Source: an uncultured Candidatus Saccharibacteria bacterium (GTDB lineage Bacteria; Patescibacteriota; Minisyncoccia; UBA6257; GWB1-50-10). Taken from it: a DNA stretch of 39,557 bases. The stretch covers positions 1 to 39,557 of the forward strand of contig CAZXDO010000040.1 in NCBI GenBank assembly GCA_964639325.1. Direction: 5' to 3'. Position numbers and translations under genes: made by a program. The notes under the pieces are model-generated. The model saw nothing but the letters and a program-made list of their open reading frames with translations, did not search any database and was not told where the DNA came from. The first letter of the stretch is position 1; the number at the start of each line of letters is the position of its first letter. Below are positions 3,750-37,761 of the stretch, piece by piece.

Positions 3750-3879
3750 TTTCCTTCCCCCCATATTAAGTTATTAATATACTAATTTATTTATATTATT
3801 ATTACATTTTTTTTATTAAAATGTCAAATAATTATACAAAACGACCGATATAATGAAATGTTATCAATATGGTTATTTT

Positions 3880-3920
3880 CAACATGGGGGTTCCCGACAC
3901 CCCCAAGTTGTTGTGGATAA
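3880..3920 (+). repeat. REP-like palindrome copy 2 + TGTGGATAA
   Basis: CAACATGGGGGTTCCCGACACCCCCAAGTTGTTGTGGATAA. Confidence 0.95.
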
Positions 3921-14944: not shown

Positions 14945-15730
14945 ATGCCGAGAAAGTGGACGAAGGAAGAAGAAAGGGAGAAACGAGAAGAATTGATAGA
15001 ATTGTATGTAAATCAAAACAAAACCATTAATCAGATCGGTGGCATTTTGAGTTTAGGTGATGCAACTGTATATAACCGCTTGATTCGGTTAAATATTCCA
15101 GTAGATAGAAGTAGGAAACCAAGATGTAACAACAGTAAAAGAGGGAACATAATAATACCCAAAAATTCCAGTAAATTAGCTGAGTTTGTAGGAATAATGT
15201 TAGGAGATGGTCACATAACTCCAACTCAAGTAACCGTGACTCTGGGTACAAAAGAGAGATTGTATTCTGACCGCATAGCTGATTTAATGGAAGAGCTGTT
15301 TAGTGTAAGACCTAATATTTTTATATCAAAACTAGGTCATTTAGTTCTTTACATAGGATCCGTTGATCTCGTAAGGTGGTTTGAAAAAATGGGCCTGGTT
15401 CATAATAAGGTTAAAGAACAAGTTGATGTCCCAGAATGGTTGTATTTTGAGGAAGAGTATTTAAAATCCTTTATAAGAGGATTATTTGATACCGACGGTT
15501 CCGTCTATAAACTTAGGTTTGGGGTTCAAGTTGCTTTTATCAATCGTTCCATAAGATTACTTGAATCGACTAGGGAAATATTAAAAAAATTAAATTATCA
15601 TCCTTCTAAAATAAGCGGTTACAAAATTTATATAACTCGCCGACCTGATTTAGATAAGTTTTTCAAGGAAATAAGGCCCAATCACGAAAAACATAACAGA
15701 CGTTATATAATGTTTACACGCGAATCATAG
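14945..15730 (+). CDS. HTH + double-motif LAGLIDADG endonuclease-like protein
   Basis: LAEFVGIMLGDG and FIRGLFDTDG motifs; N-terminal HTH-like KTINQIGGILSLGDATVYNRL. Confidence 0.85.
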   Translation: MPRKWTKEEEREKREELIELYVNQNKTINQIGGILSLGDATVYNRLIRLNIPVDRSRKPRCNNSKRGNIIIPKNSSKLAEFVGIMLGDGHITPTQVTVTLGTKERLYSDRIADLMEELFSVRPNIFISKLGHLVLYIGSVDLVRWFEKMGLVHNKVKEQVDVPEWLYFEEEYLKSFIRGLFDTDGSVYKLRFGVQVAFINRSIRLLESTREILKKLNYHPSKISGYKIYITRRPDLDKFFKEIRPNHEKHNRRYIMFTRES

Positions 15731-15758: not shown

Positions 15759-15841
15759 GCACGGGTATCTAAGCGGACAACAGAGATTGGCTGTAAACCA
15801 ATTGGCTTATGCCTACGGGGGTTCGAATCCCTCCCCGTGCA
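15759..15841 (+). tRNA. tRNA-Tyr (GTA), long variable arm, CCA not encoded
   Basis: Acceptor GCACGGG/CCCGTGC+A; anticodon arm ATTGG-CTGTAAA-CCAAT; T arm GGGGG-TTCGAAT-CCCTC. Confidence 0.95.
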
Positions 15842-15911
15842 CAAAATAAATAATCCCTATAAGGGATTTTTATTTTTTGAGGGGTTTGAAGAGGTGTGGG
15901 GTCAGACATAT

Positions 15912-15939
15912 TTGACAAAAGATATAGAATAAGTATTAT
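15912..15939 (+). promoter_or_regulatory. Putative sigma70 promoter
   Basis: TTGACA-16 nt-TATTAT. Confidence 0.45.
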
Positions 15940-15985
15940 TAAGGTAGTTAATTTAAAATTTAATAAAATAATGGAGGAACAAGAA

Positions 15986-16570
15986 ATGGAAAGAAAAAAT
16001 TTAAAGCGAATGAAAAACCTTACCTTTTTAAGGCATGTAAGATTGATGATGCTATCAATAACCGTGCTTTTGATATTTTTGTTAGTGGTAGGTCTGGTAC
16101 CGTTATGGTTTTTTACGGGATTTCTTATCCTATTTATTCCGGTTTCTTTTGTAAAAGAAAGACTGGAAATTTTATGGAGAGATTTACTGTGGAATCTAGA
16201 CAAAGAAATTTTTAAAAAAGAGTTAGAAATTTCAAAGTTAGAAAACACCATTGCCAAAGAAGAAGAAAAAATCTTTGGAAGTGGAAATGGAAACGAAAAC
16301 CAGGACTCAATTAACAAAATTACCAAAGGCTTAAAAGGAAACTACTTTAAGGTTAAAAAAGCTTACCAAAAAGAAGCGGATATTCATAAGGAAATAATGG
16401 GAATGTGGAAATTTTCCAAGAAAACAAAAATGAAATTTCCTATTATTGAAGCTAAATGGGGTCCAATTGAGGATATTGAAAGAAGGCATTTAATAGCCTT
16501 AATAAAGGCTGGGAAAGTGGCAAGAACAGAGAGAAAAATGAGAGAAAGGCAGTTGAAAGTTGTTGTTTAA
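15986..16570 (+). CDS. Hypothetical membrane protein (TM hairpin + coiled coil)
   Basis: Start inferred from GGAGG (15973-77) 8 nt upstream of ATG 15986; long hydrophobic segment followed by a charged helical region. Confidence 0.6.
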   Translation: MERKNLKRMKNLTFLRHVRLMMLSITVLLIFLLVVGLVPLWFFTGFLILFIPVSFVKERLEILWRDLLWNLDKEIFKKELEISKLENTIAKEEEKIFGSGNGNENQDSINKITKGLKGNYFKVKKAYQKEADIHKEIMGMWKFSKKTKMKFPIIEAKWGPIEDIERRHLIALIKAGKVARTERKMRERQLKVVV

Positions 16571-16641
16571 AAATTGTTCCAGAAAGCATTTTTTGCTTGC
16601 AGAATAATTTGTACTTTAAAAAATGAGAACTGATTAGGTTC

Positions 16642-16675
16642 AAAAAAACGAAGGCGTTAATCCTTCGTTTTTTTT
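16642..16675. terminator. Bidirectional intrinsic terminator
   Basis: A7-CGAAGG-loop-CCTTCG-T8. Confidence 0.8.
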
Positions 16676-16684
16676 GTTTCTAAT

Positions 16685-16771
16685 AAAAACCCTGCCCATC
16701 CAAAGGATAGGCAGGGATTGGAGGGAATCCTCTATATGCTTGCATACAAAGGACTATCACACTCACACATT
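16685..16771 (-). ncRNA. Putative ~87-nt small RNA (5' GU-rich strand, hairpin, UUCCCUCCAAU linker, terminator)
   Basis: Has its own promoter and terminator with no usable ORF between them; the mismatches in both stems are G-U pairs only on the minus strand. Confidence 0.65.
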
Positions 16772-16777
16772 AATCAC

Positions 16778-16805
16778 ATTATATCACACAGTTTTAAAAA
16801 GTCAA
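16778..16805 (-). promoter_or_regulatory. sigma70 promoter of the putative sRNA
   Basis: Minus strand TTGACT-16 nt-TATAAT with extended TG. Confidence 0.7.
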
Positions 16806-16807
16806 AT

Positions 16808-16848
16808 CAACTTGGGGGTTCCCGACACCCCCATGTTGGTGTGGATAA
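16808..16848 (+). repeat. REP-like palindrome copy 4 + TGTGGATAA
   Basis: CAACTTGGGGGTTCCCGACACCCCCATGTTGGTGTGGATAA. Confidence 0.95.
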
Positions 16849-16856
16849 CTTTTAAC

Positions 16857-17004
16857 AAGCTTGTCCCTGTGTTGGTTCGCAAAACAAATACTAACGCATT
16901 TGTTTTCCTGCACCTCTTGTGATAAGCAAAGCTTGTCCCTGCGTTGGTTCGCAAAACAAATAAATACTTCGTATTCATTTGTTTTTCTCACCTTCCTTGT
17001 GATA
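16857..17004. repeat. Two tandem ~72-76-bp structured repeats
   Basis: AAGCTTGTCCCTGYGTTGGTTCGCAAAACAAAT...ATTTGTTTT...CACCT...CTTGTGATA starting at 16857 and 16929. Confidence 0.9.
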
Positions 17005-17024
17005 GACTGAATTTAAGTTCATTT

Positions 17025-17182
17025 GTTGAACTATAAAAGTGGTTTTTTGGTTTTTTATAAAAAAATGGAGTTATGTAGGCGGCCGCGAGTAGAGCACTTA
17101 CACATTAAAATTGGAGGTCACCAATCGCGGTCGCCTATATAACTTCTTTTTATTAACCAAAAAACCACTTTTATATTTCAGC
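17025..17182 (+). ncRNA. Long rod-like hairpin, putative structured RNA
   Basis: Perfect 21-bp stem 17032-52/17155-75 and 22-bp stem 17067-88/17125-46 with three G-U pairs on the + strand; 36-nt loop; possible TG-A-TAGACT -10 at 17000-17008. Confidence 0.6.
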
Positions 17183-17298
17183 TAATGTATGAAATAATAA
17201 GAATCTGTGTTTTTTACGGCTTGGAAAAACCAAGTCTTTTGTGTGTTAACAAATAAAGAAAAAAGAGTATAGTTTTATAAACAACCTTTTGTAAAAAA

Positions 17299-19869
17299 AT
17301 GAAAAAATTTATTGAAAATATATTTTCTCCCGACAAACTTAAAGGGATAAAAAAAGAGGTAGAGAAGATAAATAAAAGGGAAGATGAGCTTAAAGACATT
17401 TCTCTGGAGGAGATTAGAAGTAAATCTGAAGAGTTAAAAAACAAGGCAAAGAACGGCGTTGATTTAGACAACCTTCTTCCTCTTGCTTTTGCTCTTGTAA
17501 GGGAAACCGCTAAAAGAACTTTAAAACAACGTCATTACGATGTTCAGCTTATGGGAGGAATCGCTCTTCATAAAGGAGAAATTGCTGAAATGCTTACCGG
17601 AGAGGGTAAAACCCTAGCTTCTACAGCCCCAATTTATCTTAACTCTTTACCCGGCAAAGGTGTTCACGTAGTAACGGTTAATGATTACCTCGCTAAACGT
17701 GACACTGTTTGGATGGGGCAGGTTTATGAAGCACTTGGCGTTTCAGTATCTTGTCTGGTTCACGACGGAGCATATATTTATGATCCTGAATACAAAGCTA
17801 AAGAAGAGTTTGAAAAACTAGACAAAGAAAGAGATGAAAAAGGAGGTTATAAAATAGTTGAAGATTTTCTAAGGCCGGTTTCTAGAAAAGAAGCTTATCA
17901 GGCTGATATAACTTATGGTACTAATCATGAGTTTGGATTTGATTATTTACGCGATAATCTTGTTCTCCGCCTGGAAGATAAAGTTCAAAGAAAACACAAT
18001 TATGCCATAATTGACGAGGTTGACAGTATTCTTATTGACGAAGCTCGGACCCCTCTTATAATTTCTACTCCCGACAAAGAATCCAGCGATCACTATAAGA
18101 AATTCACGAGTATTGTTAAAAATTTAAACGAAGAAGAGGATTATGAAATTGATGAAAAGAAAAAAATAGTTAACTTGACTGACTCAGGTTTTTCTAAAGT
18201 TGAAAAATTAGCCGGAGTGGACAATATATTCTCTCCGGAAAATTCTTCTTTAGTTCATTATTTAAATGAGTGCCTAAAAGCCAAAACTCTTTTTAGAAAA
18301 GATAAGGAATACGTTGTTAAAAAAGGAGAAATTATTATTGTTGATCAGTTCACCGGTCGATTAATGCCGGGAAGAAGATACTCCGGAGGTCTTCATCAAG
18401 CCATTGAAGCCAAAGAGGGTGTTGCTATAAAAAGCGAGAATAAAACTTTTGCTCAGATAACTATTCAAAACTATTTCCGTTTTTACGATAAATTAGCCGG
18501 CATGACCGGTACTGCAGCTACAAGCGCCGAAGAATTTTACAAAGTTTATAAATTAGATGTAGTTAAAATTCCACCTAACAAACCTGTAGTAAGGGAAGAT
18601 TATAACGATATTATTTACAAAACTAAGGAAGCTAAATACAAGGCTATTGCCAAAGAAGTAAAAAGGCTTAACGAAAAAGGCCAACCCGTTCTTTTGGGTA
18701 CAACTTCCATTGATAATAATGAAGTGATTGCTGACTATATTTCTAAAGAAGGTATAAAATGCGAAGTTCTTAACGCTAAAAACAACGAAAGAGAAGGTGC
18801 AATAATTGCCCAAGCCGGCAAAAAAGGAGCGGTAACTGTTGCTACTAATATGGCCGGAAGAGGGGTTGATATTGTTTTAGGGGGTTATCCTTTAGATAAA
18901 GAAAAAGCTGAAGAAGTTAAATCTCTTGGAGGGCTTTATGTTATTGGTACAGAGCGTCATGAAGCTAGAAGAATAGATAATCAGCTCAGAGGAAGAGCCG
19001 GGCGACAGGGTGATCCCGGTTCAAGCCGTTTCTTTCTATCTTTAGAGGATGATGTTCTTAGAATTTTTGGAGGAGAGAGAATTAGTAATATAATGCAGAA
19101 TTTTAATGTACCCGAAGATACGCCGATAGAATTTAATATGATATCTAAAGCTGTTAATCAAGCCCAAAAAAGGGTAGAAGGCATGAACTTTGATATTCGT
19201 AAATATCTTCTTGAATTTGATGATGTCCTAAACCGCCAAAGAGATGCTATTTACGCCAGGCGTATAAAATTTTTGAAAGCCGGAGAGAGTAACGAAATCC
19301 TTCCTATCGTTCGGGAAATAATTGAAACTCATGTAAATGAATCTGTGGCAAACCTTCAAAACGAAATCAATGAATTAATTAGGGTAAGGAACGATGAAGA
19401 GATTAAAAAGAGGGAAGAAGCTATAAAGGAAATGAAAGAAAAATTAAATGAAATTCCTGAAGAAATTGAACCGAAACGTTCCAATATGATATCTCGTCAC
19501 ATTACCAGAATAATGGACTCTCTTTGGGTTAATCATTTAGAAGCTCTTCAATCCTTAAAGGAGTCAGTTAACATTCGAGCATACGCCCAGCATGAACCAA
19601 TTGTTGAATACCGTCGAGAGGCATATAAAATGTATCAGCAATTAAAGAGAAATTTTAACTTTTTTGTCTTCAAATCAGTTTTTCAGATTCTTGAAGTCAA
19701 TTTAGATAAAGTTCAGGATCAACTAGAAGAAAAAAAGGAATCTTCTTCGGTTAACCGTTCTGGAAATAATGCAGAAAAAGGAAGAACTCCAGAGGGTAAA
19801 AAAATTGGAAGAAATGACCCTTGTTGGTGCGGTTCGGGGAAAAAGTATAAAAAGTGTCACGGGAAGTAA
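17299..19869 (+). CDS. secA: Preprotein translocase ATPase SecA
   Basis: TGEGKT, DEVDSILIDEARTPLIIS, ATNMAGRGVDI, QLRGRAGRQGDPG, C-terminal SEC-C motif GRNDPCWCGSGKKYKKCHG. Confidence 0.98.
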   Translation: MKKFIENIFSPDKLKGIKKEVEKINKREDELKDISLEEIRSKSEELKNKAKNGVDLDNLLPLAFALVRETAKRTLKQRHYDVQLMGGIALHKGEIAEMLTGEGKTLASTAPIYLNSLPGKGVHVVTVNDYLAKRDTVWMGQVYEALGVSVSCLVHDGAYIYDPEYKAKEEFEKLDKERDEKGGYKIVEDFLRPVSRKEAYQADITYGTNHEFGFDYLRDNLVLRLEDKVQRKHNYAIIDEVDSILIDEARTPLIISTPDKESSDHYKKFTSIVKNLNEEEDYEIDEKKKIVNLTDSGFSKVEKLAGVDNIFSPENSSLVHYLNECLKAKTLFRKDKEYVVKKGEIIIVDQFTGRLMPGRRYSGGLHQAIEAKEGVAIKSENKTFAQITIQNYFRFYDKLAGMTGTAATSAEEFYKVYKLDVVKIPPNKPVVREDYNDIIYKTKEAKYKAIAKEVKRLNEKGQPVLLGTTSIDNNEVIADYISKEGIKCEVLNAKNNEREGAIIAQAGKKGAVTVATNMAGRGVDIVLGGYPLDKEKAEEVKSLGGLYVIGTERHEARRIDNQLRGRAGRQGDPGSSRFFLSLEDDVLRIFGGERISNIMQNFNVPEDTPIEFNMISKAVNQAQKRVEGMNFDIRKYLLEFDDVLNRQRDAIYARRIKFLKAGESNEILPIVREIIETHVNESVANLQNEINELIRVRNDEEIKKREEAIKEMKEKLNEIPEEIEPKRSNMISRHITRIMDSLWVNHLEALQSLKESVNIRAYAQHEPIVEYRREAYKMYQQLKRNFNFFVFKSVFQILEVNLDKVQDQLEEKKESSSVNRSGNNAEKGRTPEGKKIGRNDPCWCGSGKKYKKCHGK

Positions 19870-20805: not shown

Positions 20806-20811
20806 TTTTTT

Positions 20812-20852
20812 CAACTTGGGGGTTCCCGACACCCCCAAGTTGTTGTGGATAA
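20812..20852 (+). repeat. REP-like palindrome copy 5 + TGTGGATAA
   Basis: Identical to copy 1. Confidence 0.95.
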
Positions 20853-20932
20853 CTTAATAAATTAAATTCGGGAGTTGTTAATTAATAAAAACCGCCCCCG
20901 AATAATTTTTATTTTTTGGTATACTAAAAAGA

Positions 20933-32839: not shown

Positions 32840-32855
32840 GTTTGAATATATTTTT

Positions 32856-32896
32856 CAACTTGGGGGTTCCCGACACCCCCAAGTTGTTGTGAACAA
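32856..32896 (+). repeat. REP-like palindrome copy 6 + degenerate box TGTGAACAA
   Basis: Perfect 31-bp palindrome followed by TTGTGAACAA. Confidence 0.95.
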
Positions 32897-32920
32897 CTTT
32901 TTAAAATAGAATGTTAAGTA

Positions 32921-37720: not shown

Positions 37721-37761
37721 TTATCCACACCAACTTGGGGGTGTCGGGAACCCCCACGTTG
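37721..37761 (-). repeat. REP-like palindrome copy 7 (inverted) + TTATCCACA
   Basis: TTATCCACAC-CAACTTGGGGGTGTCGGGAACCCCCACGTTG. Confidence 0.95.

Follow-up and report, generated by a model that had tools for sequence, protein, structure and literature searches.

The system we describe lies in a 39,557-nucleotide stretch of DNA from an uncultured Candidatus Saccharibacteria bacterium (the window; contig CAZXDO010000040.1 of assembly GCA_964639325.1, here contig C40 of genome G000) and consists of two RNAs encoded upstream of secA: RNA-A (A), a small RNA of about 89 nucleotides (nt), and RNA-B (B), a long hairpin whose apical loop would be contacted by A at two separate sites. We are nearly certain of this two-site interaction, which is predicted from the comparison of the two RNAs with their homologues. 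Across the relatives compared, B is conserved, single-copy, tRNA-like and placed beside a downstream start codon, A is conserved as well, and the predicted pairing covaries at both sites. The wider model we propose, to which we give an even chance, is that A is a dedicated antisense small RNA (sRNA) that would mask the loop of a tRNA-derived 5′ leader and thereby control the cell-envelope gene located downstream. Both RNAs are presumably transcribed.

Two RNAs and their predicted contacts

Two covariance models were built, R1 from 21 sequences of B and R2 from 30 sequences of A. The gene of RNA-A (16685-16773, minus strand) is delineated by a promoter, a terminator, a predicted fold and a match of R2 (16685-16776, E 2e-7). 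The promoter (16778-16805, minus strand), composed of a -35 element TTGACT, a 16-base spacer with TG and a -10 element TATAAT, agrees with the consensus at 11 of 12 positions and, together with the 5′ end of the RNA, recurs among 60 relatives searched by BLAST. From this 5′ end the minus-strand RNA comprises, in order, a seed (16760-16773), a stem-loop called SL1 (16727-16754), a linker (16717-16724) and an intrinsic terminator (16685-16716), in which a 12-pair stem (16716-16690) is followed by a T run. SL1 is deduced from the predicted fold and from the covariation of its basal stem, where all 7 of the 7 predicted pairs have sequences changed on both sides in a 30-sequence alignment (A2), and terminator hairpins are present in 30/30 aligned A sequences, these having been trimmed at such a hairpin. 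For the 89-nt RNA the predicted folding energy is -40.2 kcal/mol (z -6.97), a value equalled by none of 200 shuffles. In this minimum-energy fold the 3′ half of the 5′ segment partly pairs with the linker, so that the two segments would not be cleanly unpaired in the free RNA; the earlier note on this DNA had described an sRNA with two unpaired segments, and its minus-strand RNA is predicted here as well, but the single-stranded state of the segments has to be qualified.

RNA-B is a plus-strand hairpin (17020-17187; arms 17020-17063 and 17144-17187) that closes to a loop at about 17089-17124, with a folding energy of -88 kcal/mol (z -10.6). Its outer stem is unusually long in the genus of the window, and its conserved core, formed by the inner stem and the loop (17068-17147, plus strand), is recognized by R1 with 73.6 bits (E 3e-15). 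About 12 bases before the base of the hairpin we read an extended -10-like element, TGnTAGACT (17000-17008, plus strand), which is probably the promoter of RNA-B; the pattern TGnTAnnnT is found upstream of B in 23 of 42 loci, and in the loci of relatives a -10 element immediately precedes the B stem.

The B loop contains two words shared with the RNA-A gene, which lie where the earlier note had placed them. Site 1 (17095-17108, plus strand), the complement of the A seed, is a 14-mer that recurs on the same strand at 16760-16773 with 13/14 identical positions, and site 2 (17110-17117, plus strand), the complement of the A linker, is the 8-mer ATTGGAGG, present exactly on the plus strand at 16717-16724. 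The seed is predicted to form 15 pairs with site 1 (-18.7 kcal/mol) and the linker 8 pairs with site 2 (-12.3 kcal/mol). With C or T accepted at its variable place, the 14-mer occurs at those two sites only in the whole 677,627-base genome, where the 10-base core of the seed target, CACT[CT]ACACA, has no further occurrence; the 8-mer has 33 copies in the genome and therefore means little alone. Furthermore, the RNA-B loop is the best duplex partner in the genome of the first 18 nt of A (-20.2), the antisense strand of A itself being excluded, and the remaining candidates, the best at -18.3, show little difference from one another. A target scan tolerant of G-U pairs was uninformative (912 places with at least 10 contiguous pairs) because the A seed is rich in G and U.

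A cis-encoded antisense RNA lies on the strand opposite to its target and is fully complementary to it. In the present case, the 5′ end of A and the base of the B hairpin are separated by 247 bases (16773 to 17020), the two genes do not overlap, and the complementarity is limited to 14 and 8 bases. What is found is the equipment of a trans-encoded sRNA: a promoter and an intrinsic terminator belonging to A itself, and a predicted seed-target pairing that is kept by compensatory change. The pairing predicted at this locus is more than chance, and it is the comparative tests described below that settle the question.

Covariation and conservation of the pair

For the 40 genomes in which both RNAs were identified, duplex energies were calculated for every A with every B, the 5′ part of A being confronted with the half-loop of site 1 and the rest of A with the half-loop of site 2. 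The sum over cognate pairs is -684.7 at site 1 against a permuted mean of -523.0 (sd 15.7), and -518.4 at site 2 against a permuted mean of -421.9 (sd 10.3), and in neither case is it reached by any of 20000 permutations, the tests being uncorrected for the relatedness among the genomes. The first 18 genomes alone give 0 (site 1) and 1 (site 2) of 20000 permutations. The region of site 1 is represented by 31 distinct 12-nt strings among the 40 genomes, so that many independent changes are involved. Indeed, the pair types are AU 7, UA 8, CG 1 and UG 1 at position 6 of site 1, CG 9, AU 3, UA 3 and UG 1 at its position 7, CG 16 and UA 2 at its position -1, and UA 14, UG 2 and CG 2 at position -1 of site 2. 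With the energies of the two sites added up, 20 of the 40 A sequences have their cognate B in first place and 30 have it among the top three. The A-B pairs that are unlinked still match (G041, G092, G017 and G114), with -20.5 at site 1 in G041 and -18.6 and -18.1 in G092, and we regard them as a fair test of the predicted pairing, which was passed. In several families site 2 is shifted onto an A-rich spacer, and GGAGGUCACC is then unpaired by A (for example in G160).

These results answer strongly in favour of a dedicated pair of interacting RNAs, as had been suggested in the earlier note, where intermolecular covariation in homologous loci was proposed as the test. The opposite explanation is that the shared words are a chance match or the leftover of a local duplication, without any RNA-RNA interaction; the region is rich in repeats and the 8-mer is common, but the words stand in swapped order, unlike the product of a simple duplication, and the complementarity is kept through many variants, also when A and B are carried by different contigs. 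Duplication was already judged a poor explanation before this analysis, and we now hold the whole alternative to be practically negligible.

The same architecture is found in many genera: A, with its own promoter, 5′ seed, SL1, linker and terminator, and then B, with A in tandem upstream of B in most genomes and inverted in the window. The centre of the B hairpin recurs among the 60 relatives searched by BLAST, the loop of the relatives starts with a conserved GAGCAC..CUCAC and ends with UUGGAGGUCACC, and 12 of the 18 predicted pairs of the B stem show compensatory changes. R1 finds exactly one match each in 90 of the 151 genomes of the order, distributed over 24 of 32 families. A class-wide sample gives R1 matches in 9/151 genomes, three from the order of the window and six, all weak, from other orders; in three of these six (G252, G236 and G199) an A-like sRNA lies upstream, with a seed and a linker that fit the diverged loop by eye, and in G199 an ORF (open reading frame) assigned as murB-like from a sequence motif directly follows B.

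RNA-A was searched in 21 genomes as the best duplex partner of the half-loop of site 1, on both strands and from -800 to +500 around B: the A seed came out on top in 16 genomes and in second place in 2, and was absent from the vicinity in 3. With a further round on 29 loci, an adjacent A was found in 12 new genomes. R2 was then run on 15 genomes, comprising 3 positive controls and 12 in which A had not yet been found near B, and gave one strong match each in the 3 controls and in 10 of the 12 others (E 7.7e-5 or better), the remaining two yielding one weak match (0.03) and none, respectively. In total A was identified in 40 of the 42 B-bearing genomes examined. It is adjacent to B, in tandem and upstream, in 31 of the 40, adjacent and divergent in 4 (the window, G001, G010 and G133), on the same contig at 3.2-3.6 kb from B in 3, and on another contig in 2. 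In two loci, L068 (G143) and L072 (G158), incomplete additional copies resembling B, or stretches resembling its antisense, lie beside it.

Neither R1 nor R2 matches any of 45 loci of secA relatives (44-60% identity; 600 bases upstream, four of them shortened by a contig end), so that the linkage of the A-B pair to secA is confined to the family of the window. The titles of these 45 loci include Nomurabacteria, Parcubacteria, Kaiserbacteria, Paceibacterota and records labelled Saccharibacteria, and the nearest named secA relatives of the window are Parcubacteria-type bacteria of the candidate phyla radiation (CPR), namely Nomurabacteria, Kaiserbacteria and Paceibacterota.

The tRNA likeness of B and the downstream gene

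Two features go beyond the earlier note: the resemblance of B to tRNA-Ala(UGC), and its position, which looks like that of a 5′ leader in most genomes. Concerning the first, two blocks of RNA-B are identical to parts of the tRNA-Ala(UGC) of the same genome (C52:1020-1094). Block 1 (17090-17097, plus strand), an 8-mer placed before site 1, corresponds to the end of the D-loop, the 3′ strand of the D-stem and positions 26-27 of the tRNA; block 2 (17113-17122, plus strand), the 10-mer GGAGGTCACC, extends, in the tRNA, from the end of the anticodon stem across the variable loop into the start of the T-stem. The order of the two blocks is the same in both RNAs and their spacing is nearly equal (15 bases in B vs 14 in the tRNA). 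Block 2 is invariant in 21/21 aligned B sequences, and its only two places in the genome are B and tRNA-Ala(UGC); in the tRNA-Ala(UGC) of relatives it is exact in G075 and found with one mismatch in G030 and G160. Five pairs of the B inner stem, including one G-U, equal the acceptor pairs 2-6/67-71 of tRNA-Ala(UGC), the G-U being kept in part of the family only (GU in 8, GC in 7 and GG in 4 of 21). Among the 45 tRNAs detected by ARAGORN in the genome, of which only tRNA-Tyr lies on the window contig, tRNA-Ala(UGC) matches the B core best, scoring 42.5 where the runner-up scores 33.75, and 0/300 shuffles (mean 29.7, sd 2.8) reach this score; in 15 of 29 other genomes, too, B is matched best by it. 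According to the alignment, B is devoid of the 5′ half of the D-arm and of most of the T arm; no tRNA match (RF00005) appears at 17020-17187, even at E up to 10, and no T-box model matches B in the Rfam scan. B is a molecule resembling blocks of tRNA-Ala(UGC), as judged by these alignments, and not a member of the tRNA family; we read it as derived from, or shaped to resemble, this tRNA, the region covered by A being anticodon-arm-like.

The gene of tRNA-Ala(UGC) is directly preceded by a copy (C52:932-1011) of a ~72-base repeat, and the same repeat carries the promoter-like element of RNA-B. Two tandem copies (16857-16925 and 16929-17005, together 16857-17005, plus strand) precede B, the second one holding the extended -10-like element, which is the end of the repeat. 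It is possible that this repeat serves stable RNA genes as a portable promoter module.

Concerning the position of B, 42 loci were examined, 41 with a downstream ORF and one at a contig end. The gene following B is secA in 17 loci, all from the family of the window, and murB in 18, of which 17 belong to 11 other families and the last is G009 (Pfam in 4/4 tested, blastp in 18/18); ddl and the gene of ribosomal protein L3 follow B in one locus each (both by Pfam), and in four loci the next gene is another one, not identified. The distance from the end of the B model to the start of the first long ORF is at most 20 nt in 20/41 loci and at most 60 nt in 27/41, the starts being the first possible start codons, unverified. 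No terminator-like signal lies between B and the next gene in 29/42 loci, and a hairpin followed by a T run within 200 nt after B is seen in 13/42. Taken together, the start codons near the end of B and the presence of a hairpin and T run in only 13 of 42 loci speak, as the simplest reading for most genomes, for B as the 5′ leader of an envelope gene. In the genus of the window, a terminator-like hairpin (17218-17236; 17218-17241 with its T run, plus strand) and a second promoter-like site before secA (17246-17273, plus strand, 10/12 consensus match) are found, so that B may act there as a free RNA, as it may in some of the other genomes.

The model we propose combines these observations. RNA-A would be a trans-acting antisense sRNA with essentially one partner, the apical loop of RNA-B. 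Its 5′ end would pair with the 5′ half of the loop, through a core in which CACUCAC faces GUGAGUG and through a variable extension, and its linker would pair with the 3′ half of the loop, around UUGGAGG or on the A-rich spacer that precedes it. B would be a hairpin derived from, or mimicking, tRNA-Ala(UGC), which would begin at or near its own transcription start and continue straight into the next gene in most genomes, murB in most families and secA in the family of the window. The masking of the anticodon-arm-like loop by A would change the fate of the B-led transcript, at the level of translation start, stability or processing, thereby tuning the expression of a cell-envelope gene. The direction and the mechanism of any such regulation are what we infer from the arrangement of sequence elements.

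Several points weigh against this model. The start codons retained downstream of B are unverified, as already indicated, and the permutation tests leave the relatedness of the genomes aside. The hairpins with T runs found in 13 loci would fit a free-standing B as well, and so would the terminator-like hairpin and the separate promoter-like site of the window. The gene after B varies while A and B stay together, as would be explained by an autonomous module. With one base separating the two sites in the window, the full formation of both helices at once may be sterically strained. Finally, GGAGGUCACC is invariant and yet unpaired by A in several families, so that its conservation requires another partner.

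According to the main rival explanation, the pair forms a stable bipartite RNA of the housekeeping type, with A and B as its subunits and probably with a bound protein; A would be a structural partner, the invariant tRNA-like blocks of B would form the protein site, and the adjacency to murB or secA would reflect shared transcription and not regulation. B is indeed single-copy in every genome that has it, GGAGGUCACC is invariant in 21/21 sequences including families where A leaves it uncovered, the association of A and B survives both the change of downstream gene and physical unlinking, and in the window B has its own terminator-like hairpin and stands behind the same repeat as a tRNA gene. 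A protein partner of the pair may exist, but no candidate was found; 29/42 loci have no terminator-like signal before the next gene, whose start codon is often within 20 nt; and a housekeeping RNA would be expected to be more widely distributed than over 90/151 genomes of the order, with weak, divergent matches elsewhere. We consider this bipartite RNA possible, though on the whole doubtful.

Could B be, in the extreme case, a mimic of tRNA-Ala at the very 5′ end of envelope-gene mRNAs, read by a machine that handles tRNAs, such as the ribosome, RNase P or a tRNA-dependent cell-wall enzyme, with A as the gate covering the anticodon-arm-like loop? The bacteria concerned lack SRP (the signal recognition particle), and in the four relatives examined their 16S rRNA has no anti-Shine-Dalgarno tail. 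We hold this reading to be unlikely. If it were true, the pair would be an RNA-only switch coupling the expression of murB or secA to the state of tRNA or of translation, and a natural counterpart of the engineered guide RNAs that make or mask tRNA-like substrates.

The tRNA likeness of B also bears on the idea, already raised in the earlier note, that B is a sponge or decoy titrating A, whose real targets would be other mRNAs. Sponges derived from tRNA transcripts are known in enterobacteria. The 3′ external transcribed spacer of a tRNA operon can act as an sRNA sponge; it arises as a by-product when the tRNA is processed, and its sRNAs have many mRNA targets. Like this spacer, B is an RNA related to a tRNA gene region that pairs, by prediction, with the seed of an sRNA. 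Unlike it, B has a single-copy gene of its own, and within this genome no further target of A was seen: the seed-target core occurs nowhere else, and the B loop is the best partner by duplex energy. Moreover, over 40 genomes the seed varies together with B in its variable part, which is not expected if other targets constrained the seed. A sponge function seems to us quite improbable.

In two genomes of the secA group, G005 (L045) and G022 (L042/L062), a complement of the GGAGGU of the loop, 7-8 bases long, was seen by eye between the B stem and the start codon of secA; a cis pseudoknot formed by it could compete with the A linker in these genomes. Weaker versions of this complement are present in G034 and G017, and none in the window.

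Known systems, rejected identities and surroundings

Several known systems share part of this organization. CopA of plasmid R1, a cis-encoded and fully complementary RNA, attacks a hairpin loop in the CopT leader, one of several cases of antisense control by loop kissing. As would be the case for A and B, a small RNA confronts the loop of a leader hairpin and, after a first contact, pairing spreads into more than one intermolecular helix beside the intramolecular stems; unlike CopA and CopT, A and B are separate chromosomal genes, sometimes unlinked, and their complementarity consists of two short segments in swapped order. OxyS, an enterobacterial stress sRNA with many targets, binds the fhlA leader by kissing at two sites, both of which are needed for a stable complex. 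The likeness lies in the use of one sRNA, one mRNA leader and two separate short sites, and the difference in that A is apparently dedicated to one partner, which is tRNA-like. In type I pairs such as IstR-1/tisB, the targets are mRNAs of small toxins. The sRNA gene neighbours the 5′ UTR of its target, in tandem or divergent, and pairing takes place far upstream of the start codon, as predicted for A and B, whereas B is followed by murB, secA or ddl, without the involvement of a small ORF. Finally, the thrS operator mimics a tRNA and binds the synthetase, and T-box leaders bind tRNA at two sites. Like B, these leaders carry or read features of the anticodon arm of a tRNA, the T-box recognizing in addition a small stable RNA at two sites; B differs from both, since the thrS operator binds a synthetase and not an sRNA, and the T-box binds tRNA without resembling it.

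Full-text literature searches found no description of a small regulatory RNA with its target in CPR bacteria. The interaction proposed here can be read in the sequences themselves, with dozens of natural compensatory variants; the pair is kept across the order, and a diverged form of it was seen elsewhere in the class, in at least three genomes from other orders; and it would offer a ready-made test system for RNA-based control in organisms that are not culturable alone. It adds the possible re-use of a tRNA gene fragment as a leader or partner RNA, and the link to murB, ddl and secA suggests that the cell envelope is the object of control in bacteria whose regulatory equipment is minimal.

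The earlier note did not recognize a known family in this pair, and none was found in Rfam. A scan of the window against Rfam 15 at gathering thresholds yields tRNA-Tyr only, and an E-value scan of 16500-17350 yields only hairpin look-alikes far below threshold, the best being plant miRNA models with 38.3 bits vs a cut-off of 200; neither RNA-A nor RNA-B matches Rfam. It could be argued that B, alone or with A, is a very divergent signal recognition particle (SRP) RNA or 6S RNA missed by these models. The SRP RNA model (RF00169) has 0 matches at E up to 10 in the genome and in the region, and in 0/61 genomes (this one and its 60 relatives); the 6S model (RF00013) has no match in 16500-17350 at E up to 10, and its sole match in the genome, located elsewhere, scores 12.3 bits vs a cut-off of 46.4. 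Both absences leave room for such an RNA, and B adjoins secA. However, the SRP proteins are missing as well: neither PF02978 nor PF00448 matches in the genome, where the lowest E obtained by tblastn with E. coli Ffh is 0.77, PF02978 is found in 0/61 genomes of the order, 0/151 of the class and 0/151 of the phylum, and PF00448 in 1/151 genomes of the phylum, marginally. No Ffh, FtsY or SRP RNA is thus detected in genome G000. The absence of SRP subunits from many CPR bacteria is mentioned in a published account (PMC8080830). As for 6S RNA, the B core of the relatives measures about 60-90 nt, whereas the 6S hairpin has about 180 nt, and is devoid of a central bubble and apical stem of the 6S type. 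We therefore consider an SRP or 6S identity very improbable.

The GGAGG of the B loop was also considered as a Shine-Dalgarno (SD) sequence. SD-like words precede 11.1% of 494 long ORFs vs 11.1% of random windows, and the 3′ tails of 16S rRNA are devoid of CCUCC in 4/4 relatives with an assembled end; from these two results, GGAGG in the B loop is not a usual ribosome-binding site. By eye, an 11-base complementarity links the invariant block of B to helix 45 in the C41 copy of the 16S gene, a pairing that was dropped because the helix 45 segment differs in 4/4 relatives. The assembly contains two different 16S-like genes, G000:C41:16223-17758 and G000:C7:62-2124, neither with CCUCC at its 3′ end. 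The first is full-length, with an odd helix 45 and 3′ tail, unlike the four relatives, and the second is matched in five pieces, with a 3′ end closer to that of the relatives; one of these copies may come from another organism (contamination is rated 2.3%). A small-ORF reading of the locus, with a 45-amino-acid (aa) frame at 16718-16855 (plus strand), was rejected too, no homology search having been aimed at it: this frame enters a dispersed repeat, runs antisense to the promoter-terminator unit of RNA-A, and overlies a conservation of the RNA type, namely the covariation of SL1.

Genome G000 has 677,627 bases in 53 contigs, with 35% G+C, and is rated 98% complete. In the window, the two-RNA locus occupies a 728-base gap between an unannotated ORF of 224 aa upstream of RNA-A (15896-16570, plus strand), to which no Pfam family matched, and secA (17299-19869, plus strand), which is identified by Pfam SecA_DEAD (E 2.3e-118) and five further families. 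The plus-strand terminator of the 224-aa ORF (16642-16674) and the RNA-A terminator point toward each other. Further upstream, a 261-aa ORF (14945-15730, plus strand) with a LAGLIDADG_3 domain (E 1.2e-12) immediately precedes tRNA-Tyr(GTA) (15759-15842, plus strand).

Other copies of the ~72-base repeat are found at C41:18904-19062, C50:113-287, C46:23224-23310, C37:4576-4660 and C38:13563-13691, in addition to the one before tRNA-Ala(UGC); two copies lie about 1.1 kb past the 16S gene on C41. Between the genes of RNA-A and RNA-B lies also a copy (16804-16854, no strand assigned) of a ~47-base dispersed repeat with more than 40 matching places in the genome. This repeat is outside the conserved A-B module, and it is absent from the 91 bases that separate A and B in G001. 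It contains a G+C-rich hairpin, and its minus strand includes a word equal to the consensus DnaA box. Further copies are located in the window at 2830-2871, 3879-3920, 20811-20855, 32855-32901 and 37721-37761, and elsewhere in the genome, for example at C28:84-133 and C53:53-100, several of them at contig ends; one copy was miscalled by ARAGORN as a 100-base 'tRNA-His' (C22:13279-13378).

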